The notes beneath the pieces are model-generated. The model saw only the letters and a list, made by a program, of their open reading frames with translations. It did no database searches and was not told where the DNA came from. Source: an uncultured Candidatus Saccharibacteria bacterium (GTDB lineage: Bacteria > Patescibacteriota > Minisyncoccia > Phycocordibacterales > UBA12079). From it: 62,153 nucleotides of DNA. The DNA lies in the NCBI GenBank assembly GCA_964486155.1, contig CAZAKQ010000002.1:1-62153 (forward strand), written 5' to 3'. Both the position numbers and the translations under genes were made by a program. Below are positions 13,769 through 47,805 of this stretch, in pieces. Within the stretch, counting starts at the first letter, position 1, and the number at the start of each line of letters is the position of its first letter.

Positions 13769-14410
13769 CTATTTTTTATTTTTAACTTTAAATAAAAATG
13801 AAAACGAAAACATTCCAGGCCAAAATTTATCTAACCAGGCATATTTTCCTAAAGGATAAATTTTTACATCTTCAAAATATTTTTCTAAAATTTGCTTAAA
13901 TTCTTTATAAGAAAAATGGTTAATATGGGTAGGATCTTCTAAAGGAGTTCCTTGTTTTATTCCGAAAAATAATCTTATTCGATTCATTAAAGAAAAAGCA
14001 TTAGGGATAGAACCTAAAAAAACTCCATCTGATTTCAAAACTTTGGTTATTTTCTTTATTATATCTTCTGGATAATATAAATGTTCTAAAACCTCACCTG
14101 CTACCACAACATCAAAATCTCTAGTTAAATTCCAATCATCATATAAATTTAAAGTTTGAGTTTTTATTCCTAAATTATTTTTAGCAATTTCTAAAGCTTC
14201 TTCATCTATGTCTACACCTAAAATCTCATTATTTTTATAATAAGTCTCTGTTAAAACTCCATCGCGACATCCAATATCCAAAACTTTTTTATTTACTCCT
14301 ATTTTTTCTTTTAAGAAATTACCTCTTTCATCTTTTAACAAAGACATTCCGCGTCTACCTCCTTTTTTATGATGTTCTTTATAAATTGTGTTTAATTCTT
14401 TATTTTTCAT
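13769..14410 (-). CDS. class I SAM-dependent methyltransferase
   Basis: VLDIGCRDG motif I and a DVVVAGEVLEH motif. Confidence 0.75.
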   Translation of the reverse strand: MKNKELNTIYKEHHKKGGRRGMSLLKDERGNFLKEKIGVNKKVLDIGCRDGVLTETYYKNNEILGVDIDEEALEIAKNNLGIKTQTLNLYDDWNLTRDFDVVVAGEVLEHLYYPEDIIKKITKVLKSDGVFLGSIPNAFSLMNRIRLFFGIKQGTPLEDPTHINHFSYKEFKQILEKYFEDVKIYPLGKYAWLDKFWPGMFSFSFLFKVKNKK

Positions 14411-15537
14411 TATATTTTTTGATATATTCTTATTATTTTTTTAATTAAATTTTCTAAATTATGATCATCCATAATAATATCTCTTAATCTTTTACCAACT
14501 TTTATTTTTTCTTCTTCTGATAATTTAGAAAGATCATGTATCTTATCTATTAAATCTTTATTATCCTTTTTTTCAAAAAATAATTTATCAACATATTCTC
14601 TAAAAACTTCTTTAGAAGAATCATTACTTGATAATACTAACAATCCACAAGACATTGCTTCTAAAATAGCTTTATCTAAACTTCCTGTCTGGCTTGTATT
14701 AATAAACAAATCTGCTTTATGTAAGTAATTAATAATATTTTTATTAGGAACAGAGCCAACAAAGCTTATTTCTTTTTCTAAACCTTCTTTTTTAACTCTT
14801 TGTTTTAAATTTTCCAAATATTTTGTTTGATCAATTTTTCCTACTCCTCCAACAATGTCTAGTTTAACTTTTAATCCTTTTTCTTTTGAAATTTTTATCG
14901 AATCAATCAAAGTATCATAATCTTTAATTGGAGAAATTCTACCAACAGTTATAATTTTAAATACATTTTCTTTAAAATTATTATCTTTTCTATAAAATTG
15001 ATCTATATTGATTCCATGCCCTGTAATATTTAATTTTTTAGTTTTTATACGAAATGATTCTGGAGTAGCTGAAAAAATAGTGTGAGTTAATTTTTCAGCT
15101 ATTCGTAACTTTAAATCAACAGATTTATGCATATACCACAAACCAATTTTCTTTTGCCATAATCGCCACAAAATGCCCCCTAAAACAATATATTCTGGGT
15201 TCATATGTACAAAAACATTATCGTAATTATGTCTTTCAGTCCAAATATATTTGTAAAAATTTTTTATATATAAAAATTTCTTGAAAATTGAATCATTGAA
15301 AATTGATTGAGAATTGAAAATTGAAAACCTGCCTGCCGGCGAGGTAGGTTGAAAATTATCCTGTTCTTTTCCTAAGGAAAGAACTTTAACATTATTAGGC
15401 AAAGCATATTCTCCCACCTCTAAAGCTATTACTGTAATTTTTTCACAATGCTTGGCAAATTCAGCTACCCAACCATGAAAAAAACCAAGGATATCATCAT
15501 TTTTATTTATTTTTTGTGTTAATATCAATAATTTCAT
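14410..15537 (-). CDS. glycosyltransferase family 1/4 (carries an in-frame repeat insertion)
   Basis: GT-B C-terminal motifs (INTSQTGSLDKAILEAMSCGL). N terminus MKLLILTQK. Confidence 0.8.
   Translation of the reverse strand: MKLLILTQKINKNDDILGFFHGWVAEFAKHCEKITVIALEVGEYALPNNVKVLSLGKEQDNFQPTSPAGRFSIFNSQSIFNDSIFKKFLYIKNFYKYIWTERHNYDNVFVHMNPEYIVLGGILWRLWQKKIGLWYMHKSVDLKLRIAEKLTHTIFSATPESFRIKTKKLNITGHGINIDQFYRKDNNFKENVFKIITVGRISPIKDYDTLIDSIKISKEKGLKVKLDIVGGVGKIDQTKYLENLKQRVKKEGLEKEISFVGSVPNKNIINYLHKADLFINTSQTGSLDKAILEAMSCGLLVLSSNDSSKEVFREYVDKLFFEKKDNKDLIDKIHDLSKLSEEEKIKVGKRLRDIIMDDHNLENLIKKIIRIYQKI
15281..15355. repeat. palindrome-bearing repeat inserted in frame in the glycosyltransferase ORF
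   Basis: gaaaattga/gagaattga word run plus a GC hairpin acctgcctgccggcgaggtaggt (15327-15349). Same building blocks as intergenic repeats elsewhere in the window. Confidence 0.6.
15497..15537. repeat. 41-bp perfect direct repeat, copy 1 (5' end of the GT gene)
   Basis: tcatttttatttattttttgtgttaatatcaataatttcat is identical to 16128-16168. Confidence 0.95.
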
Positions 15538-17552: not shown

Positions 17553-18644
17553 CTAATATTTTAATATTTGAACTAAATTATCTAGAGTTTTTTCTATAGA
17601 AAATTGCTTAGATTTATTAAAAGCATTTTGAGTTATCTTTTTTCTAAATTCATCATTCCCTAGAATCTTTATTATCGCACTTAATATTTGCTCTTTGTTA
17701 TTAGGCTTAATTAAAATTCCATCCATATTATCCTGAATTAATTCAGGATTACCTCCAATGTTGGTTGTAATAATTGGAACTTTTAACTTAGCTACTTCAA
17801 TTAATTGATGAGCAAAACCTTCATATTGTGTATTTAAGATAAAAATATTAACTTTTTTAATTAATTTTAAAACTTTTTCTCTCTCCAATTTACCTATTAA
17901 AAAAACTTTGTCTTTTAAATCTAAAATTTTAATTATTTTCTCTAGTTCTTCTCGTTGTGGGCCTTCTCCTACTATTTTCAATTTCAAATTAGGATAATAT
18001 TTTAGAATTTCAGGCATACTTTTAATCAAAACATCAAAACCTTTCCAAGGAACTAATCTCCCTACCGACAATAGCACTTTTTTATCACTTGGGGGTAGCA
18101 CCCCCAAGTCTTTAGAAAGTTCTATTCCGTTATAGATTACTTTAATTTTTTCTGACTCTATTCCCCAATTTTCAATTATTCCCTTAAAATATTTACTTGG
18201 TACTATTATAGACTCAGCAGTAGAAGCTACTTTTTTTTGAATCTTTTTTAAAATTTTAACTTTCCAATTATATTTACTATATTCTAAACAAAAATCATCT
18301 AAATTATCTTTAACTCCAAATCTCTGCACTCCTTGTTCCCAAGCATAGTCTCCAGCCACCCGTATTAAAAATCTTTTTTTTAAAATCTTATTAGCCAACA
18401 TAGTTGGTAAACCTACACTTACAGGATCTTGGGCATAAATAATATCTACTCTCTTAGATCTTTTTAAAATTTTGAAGAAATAAACAAAATGCCTAATTAT
18501 TTTAGGTAAATAACGCACTTCTCCAAAAGGCAAAACCTCCACTTTTATTCCTCTTTCTGGTAATTTATCAAAAAGCAACTTTGAGTAAGTTGCAGGTCCT
18601 CCAATATCTGGCGGATATATCCCTGTAGTAATTAATATTTTCAT
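17553..18644 (-). CDS. glycosyltransferase family 4
   Basis: MKILITTGIYPPDIGGPATY N terminus and an EGFAHQLIEVAKLKVPIITT motif. Confidence 0.85.
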   Translation of the reverse strand: MKILITTGIYPPDIGGPATYSKLLFDKLPERGIKVEVLPFGEVRYLPKIIRHFVYFFKILKRSKRVDIIYAQDPVSVGLPTMLANKILKKRFLIRVAGDYAWEQGVQRFGVKDNLDDFCLEYSKYNWKVKILKKIQKKVASTAESIIVPSKYFKGIIENWGIESEKIKVIYNGIELSKDLGVLPPSDKKVLLSVGRLVPWKGFDVLIKSMPEILKYYPNLKLKIVGEGPQREELEKIIKILDLKDKVFLIGKLEREKVLKLIKKVNIFILNTQYEGFAHQLIEVAKLKVPIITTNIGGNPELIQDNMDGILIKPNNKEQILSAIIKILGNDEFRKKITQNAFNKSKQFSIEKTLDNLVQILKY

Positions 18645-23097: not shown

Positions 23098-23979
23098 TTA
23101 TTTATTTTGTTCTTTAATAGCTTTTATATAATTTTCTAAGGTTTTGGTTTGTTTCCAACCCAAAGCTTTAATTTTTTTAGAATCAATTACTGACATAGAA
23201 CGACTTGTTTTAGTTTGTGGTAACATTTCAATTTTCCCCCCAAACATATCAGCTATATCTAATAAAGAGTAATTCTCTGAGGCACTAATTCCAAAACCGT
23301 CTCCCTCTCCTTTTTCTCCTACTAACAAAATTCCATTTACTGTATCGTCAATATGAGTAAATGAACGAGTTTGAGTTCCTGGTTTTCTTACCAAAAGAGG
23401 TTCTTTTCTTAAATATTTTTGTTTAAAAGATTCAATAACTGTTCCATATTTTTCGAAAGCTCTTTCTCCTACTCCGTAAACATTATAGAAGTAAGCAATT
23501 ACATAAGATAAATTATACCAACGTCCATAGTTAATAATTGTTTCTGTATTAACTGCTTTTGCTAATGTATAAGGAGCTAAATCTCTTCCTGTGGTTCCAT
23601 CTTCACGAGCTCCTACTGATTTTGTAGAAGATCCTGCATACACTAACTTACAACCAATTTTTCTCCAAAATTCTAATACAGCTAAAGTTCCTATTTTATT
23701 CAAATCCCAAACTAATTCTGGTTCATCTAGAGAAGCAGCTACTCGAGAATATTCTCCTAAATGATAAATAATATCTGGTTTAACAGTAATTAGTTTTGCT
23801 ATATCTTTAGTGTGCCCTTCTATATATTCTGCTCCTTCTATATGATTGTCTTTTGAACCAGTAAAATAATTATCAAGTGAAATCACCTGATTATTTTCAT
23901 CTTTAACTAATTCTTCTATTAAATGAGAACCAATAAATCCAGCTCCTCCCGTTACTAATATTATTTTTTTATTTTCCAT
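23098..23979 (-). CDS. NAD-dependent sugar epimerase/dehydratase (UXS/GalE-like SDR)
   Basis: VTGGAGFIGSHL Rossmann motif and a YxxxK-like segment (YTLAK). Start taken at MENKKIILV rather than the ORF-track start 24018. Confidence 0.85.
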   Translation of the reverse strand: MENKKIILVTGGAGFIGSHLIEELVKDENNQVISLDNYFTGSKDNHIEGAEYIEGHTKDIAKLITVKPDIIYHLGEYSRVAASLDEPELVWDLNKIGTLAVLEFWRKIGCKLVYAGSSTKSVGAREDGTTGRDLAPYTLAKAVNTETIINYGRWYNLSYVIAYFYNVYGVGERAFEKYGTVIESFKQKYLRKEPLLVRKPGTQTRSFTHIDDTVNGILLVGEKGEGDGFGISASENYSLLDIADMFGGKIEMLPQTKTSRSMSVIDSKKIKALGWKQTKTLENYIKAIKEQNK

Positions 23980-24172
23980 GTTCTTTATTGTAACAAAATA
24001 AATAGTTAATTCAATCAAATTCTAACACCCCATCCGTTAAAACTAAAAAATTCTACTAGTCCAATTAACTGAACTAATTTACTCCATTTAAATGGAATAT
24101 TTGAATTACTTATAATTATTAATTAACCTTTTTACCTTACAAATACAAAATAATCCAAAAATTAAACACAGC

Positions 24173-24212
24173 TCAATTAGATTATTCCAATTAATTGGAA
24201 TAATCTAATTGA
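24173..24212. repeat. 40-bp perfect palindrome (core tattCCAATTAATTGGaata)
   Basis: Base-by-base symmetry checked. Degenerate relatives lie at 24054-24100. Confidence 0.9.
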
Positions 24213-24286: not shown

Positions 24287-25756
24287 CTATTCTTTATGAT
24301 TTTCTGAATCTAATTTTGTAGTATAACTCATTCCTACTACGGCGACTAAAACAATTCCTCCTAACACAAAACTCCATTTATTTATAGGAAATTTAAAACC
24401 TTCTTCTTTTTTAGCTTCTCCATTGTCATTCATAATCTCGGAAGGTTCAACCTCCCGAGATTTACTAATTGTGGCAATTTGATTATTTGAGATATTTTCA
24501 ATCTTATCTACTGGTTTTTCTACTGAATATAAAACAGGAACTTTTGGAACTACTTCAACTTCTTCTTTAATAAAGCTAGAGACTTCATTTTTTATATTTG
24601 AATTTTCTTTTTTTTCAAAATTAAAAGCTAATATACCATTTGGATAAAGTAATTGAACAATTGAATTTTCTTTTGGTAATAAACCGCTAACACTATAAGG
24701 TAATTTTAAGTAACTCTTTGGGAGTAAAATAGTGTTTTTAGGCAAAGTAAAATAATTATTATCTACTCTCAAACGCCACCAAGATAAATTAATTTCATAT
24801 TTAGAAGAATTATAAAGCTCTATAAAATTATCATTAAAATCTATTTTAACATTAGAAATAATTATTTCTGAAGGAATTACTTCTATTTTTAATTTATCAC
24901 TAGTAGAATATTCTCCTGAAATAACTTCTAATACAAGCATATATTTACCTGGATAAGCATAATTATGTAAAACACTTTGTCCTTTTCCTTTAGTTCCATC
25001 TCCAAACGACCATTGATAAAGAGCGTTTTCCAAAATTTCATTTTCCAAACCAAGAGCTTTTCCTGAAAAAGTAAAATCAGCTCCAACAATAGGTAAATAT
25101 TCTAAAGAATCAATTTTAGCCTTTATATTTACTTCAATAAATACTGGATTTGTACTTTGAGAAGAAGTAGGTGTAGGTTCTTGTATTTTTTCAAATACAG
25201 ATCCTTCTTCATTTTCAATATTTTCTATAAAGTTAATTTTTCCTAAACTAGGACTAGAAGATATCCACTCTCCAGAAATTTTTTGTAATGATTTTCCATC
25301 TCCATTAGCTCCCCAATCAGACAAATAATCAACAGAATCAATATCTATTAAATCTAAGTTTCTTATAACTAAAAGTTCGCCTGAGTTTTTTAAAGAAAAA
25401 GATGTATCTAAAATCAATCCTGCAAAATTTGGATTATCTCCATAAAATTTATCAGGATTATCTACTAAAATTGCATAATCTCCTCCAGACAAAATAGTAT
25501 TTCCTCCTTCTGATATAGATTTTATTTTATGATTGGTTTCTGCTTCATATAATTTCCACTTACTCAAGTCAACATCACTAGTTCCTGAGTTATAGACTTC
25601 TATCCACTCTCTTCCGCTATCACTCCCTATCTCTAAATCATACATTATTTCAGTAATTTCTATTTGAGCTAAAAGCAAATTAACTGGATAAAATAAAAAA
25701 CAAAAAACGACTGTTATTAGTCGTTTTTTATTTAATTTTAAAAACAATTTAAACAT
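24287..25756 (-). CDS. surface protein with lamin-tail-like (LTD) and PKD-like domains and a C-terminal TM anchor
   Basis: ITEIMYD..EWIEVYN and FIELYN..WWRL LTD-like segments, a WSFGDGTKG PKD motif, a signal peptide and a C-terminal hydrophobic helix. Confidence 0.65.
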   Translation of the reverse strand: MFKLFLKLNKKRLITVVFCFLFYPVNLLLAQIEITEIMYDLEIGSDSGREWIEVYNSGTSDVDLSKWKLYEAETNHKIKSISEGGNTILSGGDYAILVDNPDKFYGDNPNFAGLILDTSFSLKNSGELLVIRNLDLIDIDSVDYLSDWGANGDGKSLQKISGEWISSSPSLGKINFIENIENEEGSVFEKIQEPTPTSSQSTNPVFIEVNIKAKIDSLEYLPIVGADFTFSGKALGLENEILENALYQWSFGDGTKGKGQSVLHNYAYPGKYMLVLEVISGEYSTSDKLKIEVIPSEIIISNVKIDFNDNFIELYNSSKYEINLSWWRLRVDNNYFTLPKNTILLPKSYLKLPYSVSGLLPKENSIVQLLYPNGILAFNFEKKENSNIKNEVSSFIKEEVEVVPKVPVLYSVEKPVDKIENISNNQIATISKSREVEPSEIMNDNGEAKKEEGFKFPINKWSFVLGGIVLVAVVGMSYTTKLDSENHKE

Positions 25757-27533
25757 CTTCTTTAGGTTTTTCTACATATAATATATCTTCTAAATCTTTT
25801 TTAGAAACTTCTTTATTTTGATTTTGTTCTAATACTTCTTTTGATTTCTGAATTATTGTATTCTCCTGCTCATTTTCTCTTTTAGAATTTAATGAAGACA
25901 TAGTTTTTTGTTGATGTGAGTTTTGTTTTACTGAATTCGTTTGTTTTGAAACTTCTAACCCATCTACAAATTGCTGATTAGACGATTTAAGTTCTTGTGA
26001 TTTGTTGTTCTTCAACTCCAAATTCTTCATCGCTTCAGAAAGAGCTTCTTTCAACTGATTTTTATTATCAATAGGAATTTTAGTTCTTGTTGACTTAGAT
26101 TTTAAATGACTAGTTTTGTTATTAGACAAATCTTTTAAAGAAATCTTTTTATTTTTTAATTTAGAGTAAGTTTGGATCTTAGGAGCACTTTGTTTAAAAT
26201 TATTTTTGTTAGATTGTATTTTAGTTTTAGCAATTATTTTAGTTGAATTAAGCCATTCTTCAATTTTTTCTTCCACCATTTTTTTAGGACTAGCAAAATT
26301 TTCACGAGAATATTTTATTATTTCATCTTTATATGAAAAATCTGGTTTAGTAATAGGAGGAAGAGTTCTTGCAGAAAAAGGATTAGAACCTATTCCATCA
26401 ATCATCAGTCTCAAATAAATTTGAGCAAAACCTAAATTAACCAAATCTTCAGCTGTAAATTCGGGAGAAAATTCTTTTTCTAATTGTTCGGCATCTGTAG
26501 CTCCTACTCTAAAAGTAATCATAGTTCCTACGTTTCCAAACACAGCAGCACGGACTACTTCGGGCATTTGTTCAATATATTGATGAGCTAAAGTCAAATT
26601 TAACTTGTATTTTCTAGCTTGAGATAATATATCAGCGAAAGAATCATTAGCTAGATTCTGAAATTCATCAATATATAAATAAAAATTAGGAAGTTTCGCT
26701 AATTCTTCTGTCCTTACATCGGCCCTACTCATCGCAGCTAAATATATCTTTGTAGTTAACATAGAACCTAATAAATCCGCGTTAGCTTCGCCTACTTGTC
26801 CTATAGAAAGATTAACCAAAAGAATCTTTTTACTATCTAAAACATCTCTAAAATCAAAAGAAGATTTTTCTTGCCCTACAATATTTCTAATTAAAGGATT
26901 AGAAGTAAATTGTCCCACTTTATTTAAAATAGCAGCATAAGCATCTTTTCTATATCGCTCATCCCATCCAGCAAATTCTTCAGTCCAAAAAGCTTTAACG
27001 GAAGGATCAGTAATATTAGCTACTACTTTTTTCCTATATTTAGCATCCGTAAATATTTTAGTCATTCCTAACATAGTAGATCCTGGATATTCTAAAAGAG
27101 CCAACAAAGTATTATTAGTAATATGTTCCATTCTATCCGAAAAAGTATCCTCTCCCCAAATCTTTTTAAAAGCAGAAAGAAGCCCTTGAGCAACTAAATG
27201 TCTTTTATCTGGACCAACATCTTCCATCACATTGAAAGAAATAGGATTATCAACATCAAAAGGAGCAAAATAAATTACATCTTCAATTCTCTCTTCAGGG
27301 ACATAATCTAAAAACTTTTTAATAGATTGCCCATGGGGATCAATAAAACACATACCATTTCCTTCTTTAATATCTTGAACAGCCATATTTTCTAACATAG
27401 TGGACTTTCCCATCCCTGTTTTACCTATAACATAAATATGTCGTGTTCTGTCTGAAGCTTTAATCCCAAAAGGAGTTCGTCTATTTCGTCGATCAATTTC
27501 AGCAAAATATGTAATTGAGTTAGTATCTTTCAT
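25749..27533 (-). CDS. TraD/VirD4-like (FtsK/HerA superfamily) P-loop ATPase with a low-complexity tail
   Basis: Walker A GKTGMGKST and Walker B LYIDEFQN. No N-terminal TM. C-terminal ~170 aa are K/N/S/Q-rich. Confidence 0.65.
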   Translation of the reverse strand: MKDTNSITYFAEIDRRNRRTPFGIKASDRTRHIYVIGKTGMGKSTMLENMAVQDIKEGNGMCFIDPHGQSIKKFLDYVPEERIEDVIYFAPFDVDNPISFNVMEDVGPDKRHLVAQGLLSAFKKIWGEDTFSDRMEHITNNTLLALLEYPGSTMLGMTKIFTDAKYRKKVVANITDPSVKAFWTEEFAGWDERYRKDAYAAILNKVGQFTSNPLIRNIVGQEKSSFDFRDVLDSKKILLVNLSIGQVGEANADLLGSMLTTKIYLAAMSRADVRTEELAKLPNFYLYIDEFQNLANDSFADILSQARKYKLNLTLAHQYIEQMPEVVRAAVFGNVGTMITFRVGATDAEQLEKEFSPEFTAEDLVNLGFAQIYLRLMIDGIGSNPFSARTLPPITKPDFSYKDEIIKYSRENFASPKKMVEEKIEEWLNSTKIIAKTKIQSNKNNFKQSAPKIQTYSKLKNKKISLKDLSNNKTSHLKSKSTRTKIPIDNKNQLKEALSEAMKNLELKNNKSQELKSSNQQFVDGLEVSKQTNSVKQNSHQQKTMSSLNSKRENEQENTIIQKSKEVLEQNQNKEVSKKDLEDILYVEKPKEDV

Positions 27534-28163: not shown

Positions 28164-28189
28164 ATTTAGTCCAGTTAACTGGACTAAAT
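28164..28189. repeat. 26-bp perfect palindrome, core tagtCCAGTTAACTGGacta
   Basis: Symmetry checked base by base. Confidence 0.9.
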
Positions 28190-28321
28190 TTATAATTTAT
28201 ATTTCAAAAACATAATTTCTTATAATTTACTATAATTTATATATAATTTAAGACTTATTAATTTAAACGACCTAAATTGATTATATTGTAAATCTATTAT
28301 TAATAATAAAAACCTATTTTT

Positions 28322-28363
28322 TAAAACCCTACTAGTCCAGTTAACTGGACTAGTAGGGTTTTA
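28322..28363. repeat. 42-bp perfect palindrome, core tagtCCAGTTAACTGGacta
   Basis: Symmetry checked. Lies 26 nt 3' of the HTH gene stop, so it may double as a terminator. Confidence 0.9.
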
Positions 28364-28388
28364 TTTTTTAATTTTTGTTTATATTTAT

Positions 28389-28820
28389 TCAATTTCTTTT
28401 CTTGTATTTTTCATCTATTTGATTTAGAAAATCCCATCTACCTTTTCCTACAATCGGGGGCATTCCACATTTTAAAACAATCTCCATTCCATCCCAAAAA
28501 GTAACTCTGTTCTTTTTCTTTTCTACCATTTCTAAAATATTTTCATATTTGTCAAAATCAATATCATTAGCTACTTTAATTACTGTAGATTTACTTACAC
28601 TTAAAATTTTATGAATACGATACATAGATACTTTTTCGTATAACATAAAAATTATAGATAGTCGTTTAGCTAAAACTATTTTTTCAGATTCTGTTAATAA
28701 ATCATCTAAAAATCCTTTAGCTGAAGTATTAGTTTCCAAATCAGCAACAATATTAACTAAACGACTATTTATTTTGTTCGAAACATTTTTCTTTAATTTA
28801 TTTTTTGAAACATTAACCAT
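28389..28820 (-). CDS. TrpR/YerC-like helix-turn-helix protein (paralog 1)
   Basis: LLTESEKIVLAKRLSII..YRIHKILSVSKSTVIKV resembles the TrpR-family HTH. Paralog at 35706..36152. Confidence 0.6.
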   Translation of the reverse strand: MVNVSKNKLKKNVSNKINSRLVNIVADLETNTSAKGFLDDLLTESEKIVLAKRLSIIFMLYEKVSMYRIHKILSVSKSTVIKVANDIDFDKYENILEMVEKKKNRVTFWDGMEIVLKCGMPPIVGKGRWDFLNQIDEKYKKRN

Positions 28821-28846
28821 AATAATTTAATTAATTATAACATATT

Positions 28847-28868
28847 TTAGTCCAGTTAACTGGACTAA
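28847..28868. repeat. 22-bp perfect palindrome, core tagtCCAGTTAACTGGacta (candidate operator)
   Basis: The palindrome starts 27 nt upstream of the HTH gene start codon. Its centre is 63 bp from the centre of the next copy. Confidence 0.85.
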
Positions 28869-28907
28869 TTTATGGTAATTTGTTTTTTATAAATTTTAAT
28901 TTTACTT

Positions 28908-28933
28908 GATTAGTCCAGTTAACTGGACTAATC
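28908..28933. repeat. 26-bp perfect palindrome, core tagtCCAGTTAACTGGacta
   Basis: Symmetry checked. Confidence 0.9.
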
Positions 28934-29037: not shown

Positions 29038-29079
29038 AATAATTAAAATACTCCATTTAAATGGAGTATTTTAATTATT
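29038..29079. repeat. 42-bp perfect palindrome, core tactCCATTTAAATGGagta
   Basis: Symmetry checked. Lies 3' of the 29122 gene. Confidence 0.9.
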
Positions 29080-30511: not shown

Positions 30512-30707
30512 ATGGTATTATTATATCACAAGAATATTTAAACACTAAATTAATGTAAAAATAAAGAATTAAATTAATAATTAACGATAGTATATACTAT
30601 AGTATATACTATGATATATACTAAAAATGAAAAAGCTCTGATTATTTCATTATTTCAATTGATTGAAATAATCTTTTTTTCTTTTATAAACCTTACAGTG
30701 CTTTAAT

Positions 30708-31630: not shown

Positions 31631-31658
31631 ATTATACGATTATATATAATCGTATAAT
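31631..31658. repeat. 28-bp perfect palindrome (attatacgattata|tataatcgtataat)
   Basis: Symmetry checked. Confidence 0.85.
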
Positions 31659-31672
31659 TCTTATCTGCATAT

Positions 31673-31724
31673 AAATTAAAATCTTTATTACTCCAATCGA
31701 TTGGAGTAATAAAGATTTTAATTT
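31673..31724. repeat. 52-bp perfect palindrome, core tactCCAATCGATTGGagta
   Basis: Symmetry checked base by base across 26 pairs. Confidence 0.9.
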
Positions 31725-31767: not shown

Positions 31768-31782
31768 AGTTTATCCCGTTAG

Positions 31783-31855
31783 AGCCGAAGATGAGAATTG
31801 AACTCATGACCTACGCGTTACGAGTGCGTTGCTCTACCAACTGAGCTACTTCGGC
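31783..31855 (-). tRNA. tRNA-Thr (anticodon CGU)
   Basis: Cloverleaf folded by hand: acceptor gccgaag/cttcggc, anticodon loop ctCGTaa, T arm atgag-ttcaatt-ctcat. Confidence 0.85.
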
Positions 31856-31861
31856 TAAATG

Positions 31862-31934
31862 AGCCCGAGGGCAGGATTGAACTGCCGACCTTTCGCTTAC
31901 CATGCGAATGCTCTACCAACTGAGCTACTCGGGC
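31862..31934 (-). tRNA. tRNA-Thr (anticodon GGU)
   Basis: Acceptor gcccgag/ctcgggc, anticodon loop atGGTaa, T arm ggcag-ttcaatc-ctgcc. Confidence 0.85.
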
Positions 31935-32014
31935 TGATTCTTATATCTTATTTTATTTTAGGTTTTTTTGCAAAATGAAAACCAAAGTATATAACTTTAG
32001 TTTTGTTTAAATTT

Positions 32015-32220
32015 GCGCGATCGAAGGGACTTGGTCACTCTCGTGGATATTTATTTCGTGCTTTGCACTCATAAATATCTCACTCCCTTGACCTCCACTC
32101 GGCGATACGACTCTTTCGCTTCGCTACAGAGTCGGCTTCGCATCGCCTCGGTTCAAGTCCATCATCGCGCTAAAACAAAAGTCACCCAACACTATCGTAT
32201 TGGGTTCCTTTGTTTTATGC
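32015..32220 (-). other. tRNA-3'-end-associated structured module A (candidate ncRNA or miniature integrative element)
   Basis: The 20-nt sequence at 32015-32034 is identical to 32219-32238 (tRNA-Asp T-loop to 3' end). An inverted copy lies at 32151-32172. Hairpins at 32047-32080 and 32110-32134. Confidence 0.65.
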
Positions 32221-32295
32221 GCGATCGAAGGGACTTGAACCCTCAACCTCTCGCGTGACAGGCGAGTGCTCTAACCAAATTGAGCTACGACCGCA
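32221..32295 (-). tRNA. tRNA-Asp (anticodon GUC)
   Basis: Acceptor gcggtcg/cgatcgc, anticodon loop ctGTCac, T arm gaggg-ttcaagt-ccctt. Confidence 0.9.
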
Positions 32296-32344
32296 AATTT
32301 ATACTGCAATACTTTAACAAATTTTTATATTTTTCTCAATACTG

Positions 32345-32418
32345 TGTCGACGAATGGATTCGAACCATTGATCTGGCGCGTATGAGACGCCCGCTTTAAC
32401 CAACTAAGCTACGCCGAC
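32345..32418 (-). tRNA. tRNA-Met (anticodon CAU), elongator type or Ile2-type
   Basis: Acceptor gtcggcg/cgtcgac with a paired 1-72, anticodon loop ctCATac. Confidence 0.8.
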
Positions 32419-32507
32419 AATTAACCAATAATATAGCATATTTAGTTAAATAATTAAACACTCCTCCAAACAAAAACAACCCAATTGGGTTGTTTTTGTT
32501 TTACTTG

Positions 32508-32578
32508 TTGCGGGAGCCTGACTTGAACAGACACCTGGAGGTTATGAGCCTCCCGTGCAACCTTTACACCATCCCGCG
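32508..32578 (-). tRNA. tRNA-fMet (anticodon CAU), initiator-like
   Basis: C1-A72 mismatch (cgcggga / tcccgca), anticodon stem ggagg/cctcc, loop ctCATaa, T loop ttcaagt. Confidence 0.7.
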
Positions 32579-32790
32579 ATATACTATTTAGTTTTAAAAC
32601 AAATTTATTCTTGTAACTCATAACCAAAGGTTATGAGTCTATGGATCCTATCGCGTGCAACCTTTACACCATCCCGCGATATACTATTTAGTTTTAAAAC
32701 AAATTTATTCTTGTAACTCATAACCAAAGGTTATGAGTCTATGGATCCTATCGCGTGCAACCTTTACACCATCCCGCGATATATTTAGTT
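32554..32790. repeat. 100-bp tandem repeat, about 2.3 copies, each containing the 5' 25 nt of tRNA-fMet
   Basis: 32554-32653 is identical to 32654-32753. A third partial copy starts at 32754 and has a 3-nt deletion. Confidence 0.9.
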
Positions 32791-35649: not shown

Positions 35650-35677
35650 CAATTACCCCAGTTAACTGGGGTAATTG
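35650..35677. repeat. 28-bp perfect palindrome, core taccCCAGTTAACTGGggta
   Basis: Symmetry checked. Lies 29 nt 3' of the HTH paralog 2 stop. Confidence 0.9.
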
Positions 35678-35705: not shown

Positions 35706-36152
35706 CTATTTCTTATTCTTATATTTTTTAATATTATATTTTTCATAAATTTCATCTAAGATATTCCATTGCCCCGCTCCTACAATAGAAGGTATCCCCA
35801 TTTTTAAAACCAAATCCATTCCTTTCCAAAAAGTCATTCTATTTTTTCTCAGTCTAACTATTCTCAAAATATATTTATATTTATCTAAATTAATATCTTG
35901 AGAAACTTTTTTTACAGTAGTATCACTTACCTTTATCAATTCAGAAATTCTATACCAACTTAAATTTTCTTGAAGCATAAAAATGATAGCTAATCTCTTT
36001 GCTAAAGTTATTTTTTCTGACTCAGTTAACAATTCATTTAAAAAGTTCTTTGTAGAGGAATTGGTTTCTAAACTAGTAATTACATTAATCAAACGATTAT
36101 TAATATGCTCAGAAACACCTTTTTTTAATTTTTGTTTAGAAACATTAACCAT
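35706..36152 (-). CDS. TrpR/YerC-like helix-turn-helix protein (paralog 2)
   Basis: MVNVSKQKLKKGVS..LLTESEKITLAKRLAIIFML. About half the residues match paralog 1 by eye. Confidence 0.6.
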   Translation of the reverse strand: MVNVSKQKLKKGVSEHINNRLINVITSLETNSSTKNFLNELLTESEKITLAKRLAIIFMLQENLSWYRISELIKVSDTTVKKVSQDINLDKYKYILRIVRLRKNRMTFWKGMDLVLKMGIPSIVGAGQWNILDEIYEKYNIKKYKNKK

Positions 36153-36230: not shown

Positions 36231-36264
36231 CACAATACACCCCAGTTAACTGGGGTATATTGTG
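36231..36264. repeat. 34-bp palindrome (one mismatched pair), core caccCCAGTTAACTGGggta
   Basis: Upstream of HTH paralog 2. Confidence 0.85.
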
Positions 36265-36411: not shown

Positions 36412-36445
36412 CTTATATTACCCCAGTTAACTGGGGTAATATAAG
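36412..36445. repeat. 34-bp perfect palindrome, core taccCCAGTTAACTGGggta
   Basis: Symmetry checked. Confidence 0.9.
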
Positions 36446-36461
36446 AGATTGAAATGTTCTT

Positions 36462-36497
36462 TTTATTTAAATGTTATTTAAATAACATTTAAATAAA
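36462..36497. repeat. 36-bp perfect AT-rich palindrome (likely ligA terminator)
   Basis: tttatttaaatgttattt|aaataacatttaaataaa, 4 nt 3' of the ligA stop. Confidence 0.7.
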
Positions 36498-46080: not shown

Positions 46081-47805
46081 AAGTTTATTTGCTTCTTCAA
46101 ACGGAATAATCTTTTTAAAAGCTTTAATTAGAGCATCTTGTTTCATAGTAACCATTCCTTTTCCCATTACAACTTTTTCAATAGAAACTGAATCAGGACT
46201 CTTTAAAATAATTTCTTCTATATCTGAATCCATTTCAATAACTTCGTAAACTCCTGTTCTTCCTTTCATTCCTTGAGGGTTTCCTTCTATAGGAGTAGCT
46301 TCATAAACACTATCTGGAACTTCTATATCCTTTCTATATTCTTCAGGCAGACTTTCAAAAGCTTTATCTATCATCATTTTAATACTTCCTTCTATAGGAA
46401 TAGCCTTACCAGATCCTTCTGCTAATTTTCTAGTCAATCTTTGAGCAATAGCTACTATTAAAGTAGGAGCAATTAAATAAGGATCTACTCCCATTTCAAT
46501 CAATCTAGGAATAACTCCAACCGCATTATTAGTATGGATAGTAGACAAAACTAAATGACCTGTTAAAGCTGCCTGAATAGCCAAACCAGCAGTTTCTTTA
46601 TCTCTAATCTCACCTACCATAATTACATCTGGATCTTGTCTTAAAGTTGTTCTCAGTCCACTAGCAAAAGTATATCCTATTTCTGGACGAACTTGAGATT
46701 GACTTACTCCTTCTACGTTTTTTTCTACAGGGTCTTCTAAACTCAATACATTTTTACTTAATCGATCCACTTCATTTAGAATTGAATATAAAGTCGTGGT
46801 TTTTCCTGAACCAGTCGGACCTGAAATCAAAACTAATCCATGAGATTTCCTTATCCCTTTTTTAATAATAGATGAATTCTTTTCGCTCAAACCTAATTGT
46901 TCAAGCTTAGGTACTCCTTCATTAGATTCTAAAAGACGCATTACAACCTTTTCTCCATAATAAGTGGGAAAAGTAGAGACTCTAAAGTCAACTTTTGCTT
47001 CGTCAATCATCGCTGAAAAACGACCATCTTGAGGTTTTCTTTTTTCATCTAATCTCATTTGAGCTAGAATTTTAATTCTAGCTACAACAGCCCCATGGAC
47101 TTTAATCGGTAAAACTAAATGAGTTGATAAAACTCCATCTATTCTAAAACGAACACGAACCTTTTCTCCTACATGCTCAATATGAACATCAGAAGCACTT
47201 CCTTCATGAGCAAATCTTAAAATAGTAGCTACTATTTTAGTTACGGGAGCATCTTCTGTAATAGTTGCTTCTAATTTTTTCTTATCTTTATTTACTTTAT
47301 TTACAGCACTGCTGATCTTAGCTTCTTCTTCTGTTAACTCTAACTCTAATTCAGTCAAAGCTTGGGAAACCTCCCCTCTTAAACCACGGTATCCATCAAT
47401 AATCAATTCAAAATCACTAAAAGAAATTACAAAAAGTTTAAAAGGTAACCCTATCTTAGAAGAAATAAACTGAATAGCATCTCGAGCTTCAATATTAGAA
47501 GGATCCATTATTCCTATCTCCAAAAAATTATCTACAACTCCCAAAGGAACAAATTTATAATGCAAAGCTGATTTCTCAGGAACATATTTAAGAGCTTTAT
47601 TTGAAAAATTATCTATACTTAAATCTTTAGAAGGTAAATTAAAAAACTCCTCTTTAGCTTTAAGGATTTCTTGTTTAGCTATACCGTTTTTAATAAGAAT
47701 TAAATCTAAGTTAGCATCTTCATCTGTAGCTAAACTTTTTTTTACTATAGCTAGCAATTCAGGCGTAACTATATTCTTTTTAGATAAAATATCTAAATAA
47801 CTCAT
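46078..47805 (-). CDS. pilB: type IV pilus assembly ATPase (GspE family)
   Basis: N-terminal GspII-like domain, Walker A GPTGSGKTTT, GHLVLSTIHTNNA. Confidence 0.9.
   Translation of the reverse strand: MSYLDILSKKNIVTPELLAIVKKSLATDEDANLDLILIKNGIAKQEILKAKEEFFNLPSKDLSIDNFSNKALKYVPEKSALHYKFVPLGVVDNFLEIGIMDPSNIEARDAIQFISSKIGLPFKLFVISFSDFELIIDGYRGLRGEVSQALTELELELTEEEAKISSAVNKVNKDKKKLEATITEDAPVTKIVATILRFAHEGSASDVHIEHVGEKVRVRFRIDGVLSTHLVLPIKVHGAVVARIKILAQMRLDEKRKPQDGRFSAMIDEAKVDFRVSTFPTYYGEKVVMRLLESNEGVPKLEQLGLSEKNSSIIKKGIRKSHGLVLISGPTGSGKTTTLYSILNEVDRLSKNVLSLEDPVEKNVEGVSQSQVRPEIGYTFASGLRTTLRQDPDVIMVGEIRDKETAGLAIQAALTGHLVLSTIHTNNAVGVIPRLIEMGVDPYLIAPTLIVAIAQRLTRKLAEGSGKAIPIEGSIKMMIDKAFESLPEEYRKDIEVPDSVYEATPIEGNPQGMKGRTGVYEVIEMDSDIEEIILKSPDSVSIEKVVMGKGMVTMKQDALIKAFKKIIPFEEANKL

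Follow-up and report, generated by a model that had tools for sequence, protein, structure and literature searches.

We analyzed a stretch of 62,153 nt of contig CAZAKQ010000002.1 (forward strand), hereafter the window, in which two genes of the TrpR family, paralog 1 (28389–28820) and paralog 2 (35706–36152), are surrounded by palindromes. We consider it likely that paralog 1 encodes a negatively autoregulated repressor of this family and that the palindromes bracketing the gene are its own predicted operators. The sites, the family and fold of the protein, the conserved layout of the loci, the geometry of the promoter and the covariation of protein residues with operator bases were observed directly and are presented below; from these we infer binding, repression, cooperativity and the role of the downstream sites.

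Palindromes around two TrpR-family genes

A first-pass annotation of the window had described four perfect palindromes (26, 42, 22 and 26 bp) with a common 20-bp core on both sides of a 143-aa helix-turn-helix (HTH) gene. We found all four at exactly the positions it gave (Table 1), each of them containing the core TAGTCCAGTTAACTGGACTA (type A). Since the gene is on the minus strand, its upstream sites are those at 28847 and 28908, and its downstream sites those at 28322 and 28164. The upstream pair has a centre-to-centre distance of 63 bp, and its nearer member begins 27 nt 5′ of the ATG, both as originally described; orthologs and paralogs also have a site at the position of this proximal one (28847–28868). 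Seven copies of the 12-mer CCAGTTAACTGG are present in the window, compared with 0.01 expected from shuffled sequences, and all seven lie within approximately 500 bp of the two TrpR-like genes.

Paralog 2, whose protein is 61% identical to that of paralog 1, had been reported to carry the same 12-mer core with other flanks, and this is indeed the case: its sites are of the TACCCCAGTTAACTGGGGTA type instead of the TAGTCCAGTTAACTGGACTA type. A tblastn search of the window yields these two genes only, with no further paralog or pseudogene beside the palindromes of types B, C and D considered below. The same kind of search gives a weak recurrent similarity between positions 14455–14547, inside the ORF 14410–15537, and family residues 36–64 (the LLxESEKIxLAKRL helix), which is matched by 22 family members with a best E value of 0.05.

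Both proteins match the Pfam family PF01371 (Trp_repressor), with scores of 38.1 and 43.0 bits against a cut-off of 27. They do not reach TIGR01321, the equivalog for TrpR sensu stricto (20.9 and 23.5 bits, cut-off 67.25), or TIGR02531, the model for HisR/YerC-YecD (22.3 and 28.9 bits, cut-off 42.2). By these scores the proteins are assigned to the TrpR family, and to neither TrpR sensu stricto nor HisR/YerC-YecD. A PDB search with a profile of 27 homologs led to the YerC/HisR-type structures 3frw, 3g1c and 3kor and did not reach E. coli TrpR at E ≤ 1. The AlphaFold2 (AF2) model has a predicted local distance difference test (pLDDT) score of 74 overall, 85–91 over residues 41–100 (the HTH) and low values in the last 25 residues. 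With this model, the top 41 PDB matches in Foldseek were all TrpR or TrpR-like (target-normalised template modelling score of about 0.67–0.75), and the all-helical TrpR fold with its DNA-reading head of helix D, turn and helix E is found in it.

The proteins carry a conserved extra C-terminal segment of about 35–40 aa with the motif FW...GMPP..GKGRW, which is absent from the ~100-aa TrpR and from HisR. No HUH/Y1, DDE or recombinase domain was found in the protein, which consists of the TrpR-type HTH domain and the 40-aa tail only. Clustered at 50% identity, the family comprises 2132 clusters at E ≤ 1e-3 and 869 clusters at E ≤ 1e-10; the 150 best-scoring clusters are nearly all full length (~130–146 aa), and the homologs are annotated in their sources as Patescibacteria/Paceibacteria proteins, "Trp family transcriptional regulator". 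No trp or aro genes were found near any site, in the window or at the homologous loci, and no his genes or histidine transporters are adjacent to the sites.

Conserved layout, promoter geometry and covariation

A scan of one genome per species gave 27 homologous loci, from Paceibacteria, Nomurabacteria, Saccharibacteria, Campbellbacteria, Zambryskibacteria, Taylorbacteria, Yanofskybacteria and others; in all, 38 family genes were examined, and seven further proteins were looked up later. Perfect palindromes with one locus-specific core are present on both sides, or on at least one side, of about 30 of the 38 family genes, and the bracket layout was also found for all seven of the proteins looked up later. 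The locus-specific cores vary, as in TACGATATATCGTA, TAGTACGATTAATCGTACTA, CTACAGTTAACTGTAG, TATTCCATTTAAATGGAATA and TAGTTCAATCGATTGAACTA. Across the family loci, the centres of the upstream sites lie 12–100 nt before the start codon, and the downstream sites start at a median of about 14 nt past the stop codon, also in lineages that are only ~30% identical. A spacing of 61–65 bp within the upstream pair recurs: 63 bp for paralog 1 in the window, 61 bp at locus L001, 64 bp at L005 and 65 bp three times at L154/L155.

The gene order ligA–TF–gatC, where TF is the family (transcription factor) gene, is kept in L003, L004, L131 and probably L120, with the operator core TACCCC, TACTTC or TACTCC; at this locus, the core changes at every flanking site at once, together with residue 77/78. 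The neighbourhood tatD(−)/TF(+)...metG(−) is common to distant lineages. The L001 ortholog of paralog 1 lies among genes without a homolog in the window.

These observations bear on the suggestion in the first-pass annotation that gene and palindromes form a small mobile HTH-plus-hairpin unit, a suggestion that they do not support: the ligA/gatC position is kept in four other genomes, and the tatD/TF/metG order in distant lineages. Such a selfish or mobile cassette would resemble repetitive extragenic palindromes (REPs) with their REP-associated tyrosine transposases (RAYTs), or miniature inverted-repeat transposable elements (MITEs), the HTH protein recognising the terminal hairpins for mobilisation. 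It would account for the identical palindromes on both sides of the gene, for each paralog travelling with its own palindromes, for the copies scattered at gene 3′ ends as REPs are, and for the non-homologous surroundings of the L001 ortholog. We nevertheless regard it as very improbable. The protein lacks a catalytic domain, the positions are stable over long divergence (ligA–TF–gatC; tatD/TF/metG across classes), the operator core has changed while the locus stayed where it is, we saw neither target-site duplications nor terminal repeats apart from the palindromes, and the conserved promoter keeps a constant distance to the proximal site. An analogue of the REP/RAYT system was rejected on the absent catalytic domain and on the stable synteny with in-place change of the core.

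It should be mentioned that the neighbours of family genes are often genes of DNA metabolism: dprA, recG, holB, the uracil-DNA glycosylase gene, ligA, tatD and ssb (L148, L152, L154, L159, L003/L004/L131 and L010/L011/L078/L118). In small genomes such neighbours may be due to chance; they may also point to the regulon.

An extended −10 element is located 3–5 bp past the proximal operator in gene orientation; in the window, it is TGTTATAAT for paralog 1 and TGTTAGAAT for paralog 2. The TGTTATAAT box predicts a 5′ untranslated region of about 7 nt for paralog 1, and several family mRNAs would be leaderless or nearly so. Across the family, we searched for TGnTAnnnT within 8–34 nt of the site centre and found it in the sense direction at 19 of the 33 proximal sites (58%), compared with 0–18% in the controls (distal sites 0/14, downstream sites 6/45 sense and 3/45 antisense, proximal sites 6/33 antisense). 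In deep lineages, the operator centre is 17–20 nt before the ATG and overlaps the −10 region itself, an arrangement that resembles the E. coli trp promoter. A dimer bound at the operator would be expected to exclude RNA polymerase, as is classical for autorepression. The bracket, which recurs in about 45 homologous loci, and the extended −10 box abutting the proximal site support the autoregulatory operator geometry proposed in the first-pass annotation. Operator and promoter overlap in the way that negative autoregulation requires, and repression is the predicted outcome.

The half-site was numbered T−10 A−9 G−8 T−7 C−6 C−5 A−4 G−3 T−2 T−1. Residue 77 of the protein, with which the recognition helix starts (VS-X77-X78-TV), varies with base −8: K or R is found with G (TAGTCC), Q or E with C (TACTCC), and D with CC (TACCCC), so that the pairing of K/R77 with G and of E/Q/D77 with C is consistent in 18/18 cases overall; Pro77 is mostly found with T (TATTCC, 7/9). 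Residue 78 varies with base −6: where the residue is T or S the base is C, and where it is A the base is T or G but not C. Clades only ~30% identical to the window proteins show these residue–base pairs too, for example R/TAGTCC in L046, Q/TACTCC in L118 and L147, and P/TATTCC in L078, L122 and L082; the sisters L118 and L078, 56% identical, differ in both residue and base. In a blind test, predictions were recorded before the contigs of seven unseen homologs were fetched. Base −8 was predicted correctly in all seven (K with G twice, E/Q with C five times), and the pairing of T/S78 with C in 5/5.

The K/R–G and D/E–C pairings agree with general amino acid/base preferences. A profile alignment to the PDB-verified E. 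coli TrpR equates residues 77/78/79/81/82 with Ile79/Ala80/Thr81/Thr83/Arg84, all five of them among the six TrpR residues published as contacting DNA (PMC9413887). The co-variation of protein and operator that had been put forward as a possibility is thus borne out, residue 77 tracking base −8 both in independent clades and in the blind test.

On this basis, the following model can be proposed. A symmetric dimer would bind TAGTCCAGTTAACTGGACTA, the palindrome of 20 bp, and bases −8 to −6 of each half-site would be read by the N-terminal end of the recognition helix (residues 77–78, corresponding to TrpR Ile79/Ala80). Since the proximal operator ends 5 nt before TGTTATAAT, a dimer bound there would cover the −35/spacer region and shut off its own nearly leaderless transcript. 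Binding is probably made more cooperative by the second operator, located six helical turns farther upstream. One or two operators past the stop codon would close the bracket as the anchor of a repression loop, as a block to RNA polymerase leaving or entering the gene, or as both, and in the window they may double as hairpin terminators. Paralog 2 would work likewise, with Asp in place of Lys at residue 77 and TACCCC read instead of TAGTCC, so that the two regulators should be orthogonal to each other, largely through residue 77.

Table 1. Predicted elements at the two TrpR-family genes of the window, followed by other sites (positions in the window).
Feature	Position	Strand	Description
TrpR-family gene, paralog 1 (predicted repressor)	28389–28820	minus	ORF, 143 aa; recognition-helix start VS-K77-S78-TV
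Extended −10 element of paralog 1, TGTTATAAT	28834–28842	minus	starts 5 nt after the proximal operator; read from sequence
Predicted promoter-proximal operator of paralog 1	28847–28868	no strand	22-bp perfect palindrome; centre 37.5 nt 5′ of ATG
Predicted distal upstream operator of paralog 1	28908–28933	no strand	26-bp perfect palindrome; centre 100.5 nt from ATG
Predicted downstream operator of paralog 1	28322–28363	no strand	at the tip of a 42-bp perfect palindrome; starts 26 nt past the stop codon
Predicted second downstream operator of paralog 1	28164–28189	no strand	26-bp perfect palindrome
TrpR-family gene, paralog 2 (predicted repressor)	35706–36152	minus	148 aa; VS-D77-T78-TV; between ligA and gatC
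Extended −10 element of paralog 2, TGTTAGAAT	36232–36224	minus	follows the proximal operator
Predicted proximal operator of paralog 2	36231–36264	no strand	core CACCCCAGTTAACTGGGGTA; the site at 36239–36256 extends to a 34-bp palindrome with one mismatch
Predicted distal operator of paralog 2	36412–36445	no strand	34-bp perfect palindrome, TACCCCAGTTAACTGGGGTA; just past the ligA stop codon; terminator-like on minus strand
Predicted downstream operator of paralog 2	35650–35677	no strand	28-bp perfect palindrome, TACCCCAGTTAACTGGGGTA; followed by TTTTTGTTTT on minus strand (terminator-like)
Type B stand-alone palindrome, core TACTCCATTTAAATGGAGTA	29038–29079	no strand	past the DUF4015 gene
Type D stand-alone palindrome, core TACTCCAATCGATTGGAGTA	31673–31724	no strand	52-bp perfect; downstream of tRNA-Thr
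Type C stand-alone palindrome, core TATTCCAATTAATTGGAATA	24173–24212	no strand	40-bp perfect; downstream of gene 24287–25756
Paired imperfect sites, type A TAGTCCAATTAACTGAACTA and type B TACTCCATTTAAATGGAATA	24057–24099	no strand	4 bp apart; candidate regulon operators

Stand-alone sites and alternative explanations

A metagenome scan with TANNCCAGTTAACTGGNNTA gave at least 120 loci. Among the matches listed, 71 are palindromic over all 20 positions (chance expectation, 1 in 16). Non-palindromic matches lie within ORFs in 35 of 39 cases and are therefore taken as chance matches, and 42 of the 52 palindromic ones are intergenic. The intergenic palindromic sites, again among the matches listed, comprise 15 convergent, 21 tandem and 3 divergent ones; all three divergent sites are upstream of a family gene, so that outside TF loci there are 0 divergent sites against 15 convergent ones. 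A family gene is found within 800 bp at only ~10 of the loci listed. Predicted operators are also found by themselves, mostly at the 3′ ends of genes, and the sites have, or also have, another role; this leaves the case for binding standing. As to whether the palindromes could be a generic REP family distributed without regard to these genes, the outcome is divided: the copies of the core in the window are all near the two genes, and most palindromes among the metagenome matches listed are away from family genes.

Several observations weigh against autoregulation by bracketing operators. The argument is comparative throughout, and a perfect palindrome is absent at six more distant homologs. 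In scans with the sigma-70 consensus, matches were no commoner than in shuffles of the AT-rich DNA, so that positional conservation alone argues for the promoters. The tie of Pro77 to T is loose; for A78, the blind test had predicted T, and G was observed in two cases; and no residue of the HTH evidently explains the palindrome centre (GTT/AAC, ATC/GAT, TTT/AAA). Palindromy often extends over 26–60 bp, well past the 20-bp footprint, which operator function by itself leaves unexplained, and about 80% of the fully palindromic matches listed lie away from a family gene, at gene 3′ ends.

In one alternative explanation, the palindromes would act primarily as hairpins in the transcript (generic intrinsic or bidirectional terminators, or mRNA-stabilising stem-loops of an AT-rich genome), the core being copied between hairpins and the neighbouring HTH gene being incidental. 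In the window, terminator-like scores were obtained for each of the four type A sites and for the type B site (7 hits, where 0.1 would be expected), and also for the downstream and ligA-proximal sites of paralog 2. A hairpin with a T-tract, as in intrinsic terminators, was found singly at 28322–28363 on the plus strand and at 35650–35677 and 36412–36445 on the minus strand, the first of these facing plus-strand (incoming antisense) transcription. The bias of stand-alone sites to gene 3′ ends and the palindromy beyond 20 bp, often extended to 30–68 bp in stand-alone sites, point in the same direction. However, T-tracts are not enriched after downstream or stand-alone sites: downstream sites have, family-wide, 3.9 T per 10 nt, equal to upstream sites, with at least 6 T in 14%, and a T-run on either side is present in only 25% of stand-alone sites. 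Moreover, the proximal sites are upstream of the −10 box and hence no part of the mRNA of the gene, hairpin function gives no reason for the sites to covary with a protein residue and still less for success in the blind test, and an Rfam scan of the window and 18 loci gave tRNAs and tmRNA only, with no RNA family at the sites. We therefore consider transcript-level hairpins an improbable explanation; a generic terminator family as the main explanation was rejected on the T-tract figures, the sites ahead of the −10 box and the protein covariation, and a known RNA element on the Rfam result.

Another explanation starts from the gene ends themselves. Orthogonal TrpR-like paralogs could mainly mark them, and divide them among themselves, instead of regulating particular genes; dimers past stop codons would serve as sequence-specific, bidirectional polymerase roadblocks or insulators in genomes with few canonical terminators, and the sites at a protein's own gene, which it would also bracket and autoregulate, would be a special case. 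On this reading, hairpin-templated copying could maintain the perfect symmetry of the sites and the concerted change of all sites of one type. The downstream site at a median of ~14 nt past the stop in ~30%-identical lineages would fit, as would the concentration of stand-alone sites between convergent genes and near stop codons, the lack at most sites of the T-tract needed for intrinsic termination, and the arrays of several paralog operator types in non-coding DNA (L045; window 24057–24212). The genes whose 5′ ends are beside stand-alone sites show no coherent function, which is again in line with it: the 17 genes concerned are functionally unrelated (RNase R, peptidases, PEP synthase among them), and no coherent regulon emerges from them. 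Against this, we know of no precedent in the TrpR family from the comparison made here, the density is low, with 12 sites per 62 kb, all at 24–36.5 kb, so that most genes end without a site, and the conserved promoter–operator geometry identifies the upstream sites, at least, as classical operators. We regard a primary role in marking gene ends as unlikely, and retain the autoregulated repressor as the preferred interpretation. The sites past the stop codon and the stand-alone sites may serve to anchor loops, to act as roadblocks or insulators against read-through and antisense transcription, to terminate transcripts as hairpins, or to do several of these. Two other ideas were set aside: a DNA-uptake sequence, given the low site density and several types per genome, and a restriction-modification controller or toxin–antitoxin module, since the gene forms a transcription unit of its own and has no such genes beside it.

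Matches to TANNYCANTNNANTGRNNTA number 12 in the window, all of them at 24.0–36.5 kb, compared with 0.05 expected. The type B site at 29038–29079 is identical to the operator flanking a P0008-type paralog in another genome (L158), and the type D site at 31673–31724 to the operators flanking P0026/P0014-type paralogs elsewhere (L152–L155). Since the window has no further paralog, the corresponding genes are presumably elsewhere in the genome, and type B, C and D operators in the window presumably imply additional family members there. The degenerate type A copy reported in the first-pass annotation is present, one base away from the place assigned to it, at 24057–24076. It forms part of the paired sites at 24057–24099, which are 39–82 nt upstream of a gene for a NAD-dependent epimerase (23098–24018, minus strand). 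This gene heads a run of sugar and glycosyltransferase genes and is the only candidate regulon target in the window.

Long perfect palindromes (26–52 bp) are dense at 24–36.5 kb (24173–24212, 29038–29079, 31673–31724, 32468–32501, 36462–36497, 30587–30612 and 31631–31658), some with operator cores (types B, C and D) and others with AT-only or unrelated cores; outside this region, the only perfect palindromes of at least 20 bp are at 17730–17749 and 47218–47239. In L045, a non-coding metagenome contig without a family gene, arrays of at least four operator types are found at 1536–1900 and 2812–2884. One 33-bp spacer module recurs there with pairs of CCATTTAATTGG or with pairs of CCAGTTAACTGG, spaced 53 bp apart, which means that the change has affected both members of a pair at once. 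In L070 (3894–5237), two identical 68-bp perfect palindromes 1.3 kb apart surround a 176-aa gene and a duplicated 3′ fragment of the RNase R gene, as would be expected if a local duplication or insertion had taken the palindrome with it. A 120-bp perfect palindrome in L071 (999–1118) was discarded, as it runs to the end of the 1118-bp contig and is probably an assembler fold-back artefact.

Other features of the window were noted in the same region. Just beyond a convergent 125-aa ORF adjoining paralog 1, at 24287–27533, the gene for a TrwB/VirD4-like coupling ATPase (594 aa) overlaps that for a secreted-looking protein with lamin-tail and PKD domains (489 aa). Beside the tRNA cluster 31782–32578, positions 32579–32780 contain two to three tandem copies of a ~97-bp unit made up of part of the adjacent tRNA-Met gene and spacer, that is, pseudo-tRNA fragments. 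At 32000–32230, two copies of the 19-mer gcgcgatcgaagggacttg (3′ end of tRNA-Asp, minus strand), about 190 bp apart, enclose GC-rich sequence that looks structured; neither ARAGORN nor Rfam makes a call there, and either duplication of the tRNA end or insertion of an element could be the explanation.

Significance and comparison with known systems

To our knowledge, Patescibacteria have very few transcription factors, almost none of which have been studied. The family described here is widespread in them and conserved in fixed gene neighbourhoods, and its predicted binding sites can be read straight from the genome, which should make regulons predictable in uncultivated organisms. The link between residue 77 and the operator base (K/R with G, E/Q/D with C, Pro mostly with T) provides a natural series of specificity swaps within one fold, useful for understanding how paralogous regulators become orthogonal and for the design of orthogonal repressor–operator pairs. 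The stand-alone palindromes at gene ends suggest that a DNA-bound repressor may help to end or insulate transcription units in reduced genomes. In the literature searched, we found no description of a Patescibacteria-wide, C-terminally extended subfamily, of its palindromes, of the gene-bracketing layout or of a paralog-specific recognition code.

In the TrpR family, operators are palindromes of 20 bp and autoregulation of the genes is common; for TrpR itself, the motif is TGTAcTnGTnnACnAgTACA (PMC9413887). TrpR of E. coli, with its trp, aroH and trpR operators, has the same Pfam family and fold as the proteins of the window, is a dimeric HTH protein and is autoregulated through an operator overlapping the core promoter. 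Its motif has the same length and symmetry as the sites found here, the same C..GT..AC..G skeleton and a GTTAAC-type centre. The Patescibacteria proteins differ in the C-terminal extension, in Tyr instead of Arg69 and in the lack of trp genes nearby, as well as in the perfect palindromes on both sides of the gene and the several orthogonal paralogs per genome.

HisR (YerC/YecD) of Firmicutes provides the closest solved structures (3frw, 3g1c and 3kor) and has Tyr at the TrpR-Arg69 position in common with our proteins. As here, its operators are 20-bp palindromes and autoregulation is frequent (PMC9413887). Its operator consensus, cacTTTAnnnnnnTAAAgtg, differs from the sites found here, and HisR is shorter than 100 aa, without the C-terminal extension. 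We know of no description of the bracket layout or of paralog expansion for HisR.

In REPtrons (REP plus RAYT), a gene is likewise flanked by its palindromes, with one class per gene copy and further copies at gene 3′ ends. However, RAYTs are HUH/Y1 transposase homologs acting on single-stranded GTAG hairpins, whereas the protein considered here is predicted to be a TrpR-type binder of double-stranded DNA; in addition, the loci here are syntenically stable and the promoter is fixed beside the site.

Several identical operators placed tens to hundreds of base pairs apart in one transcription unit are also known for LacI (O1/O2/O3), GalR (OE/OI) and DeoR, and this likeness suggests cooperative binding or looping. 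Here, in contrast, the second set of operators is just past the stop codon, and a loop would enclose the whole regulator gene (~480–580 bp). Overall, we judge the system to be of an already known kind, an autoregulated TrpR-family repressor with a 20-bp palindromic operator, of which the Patescibacteria subfamily with its orthogonal operators is a variant.

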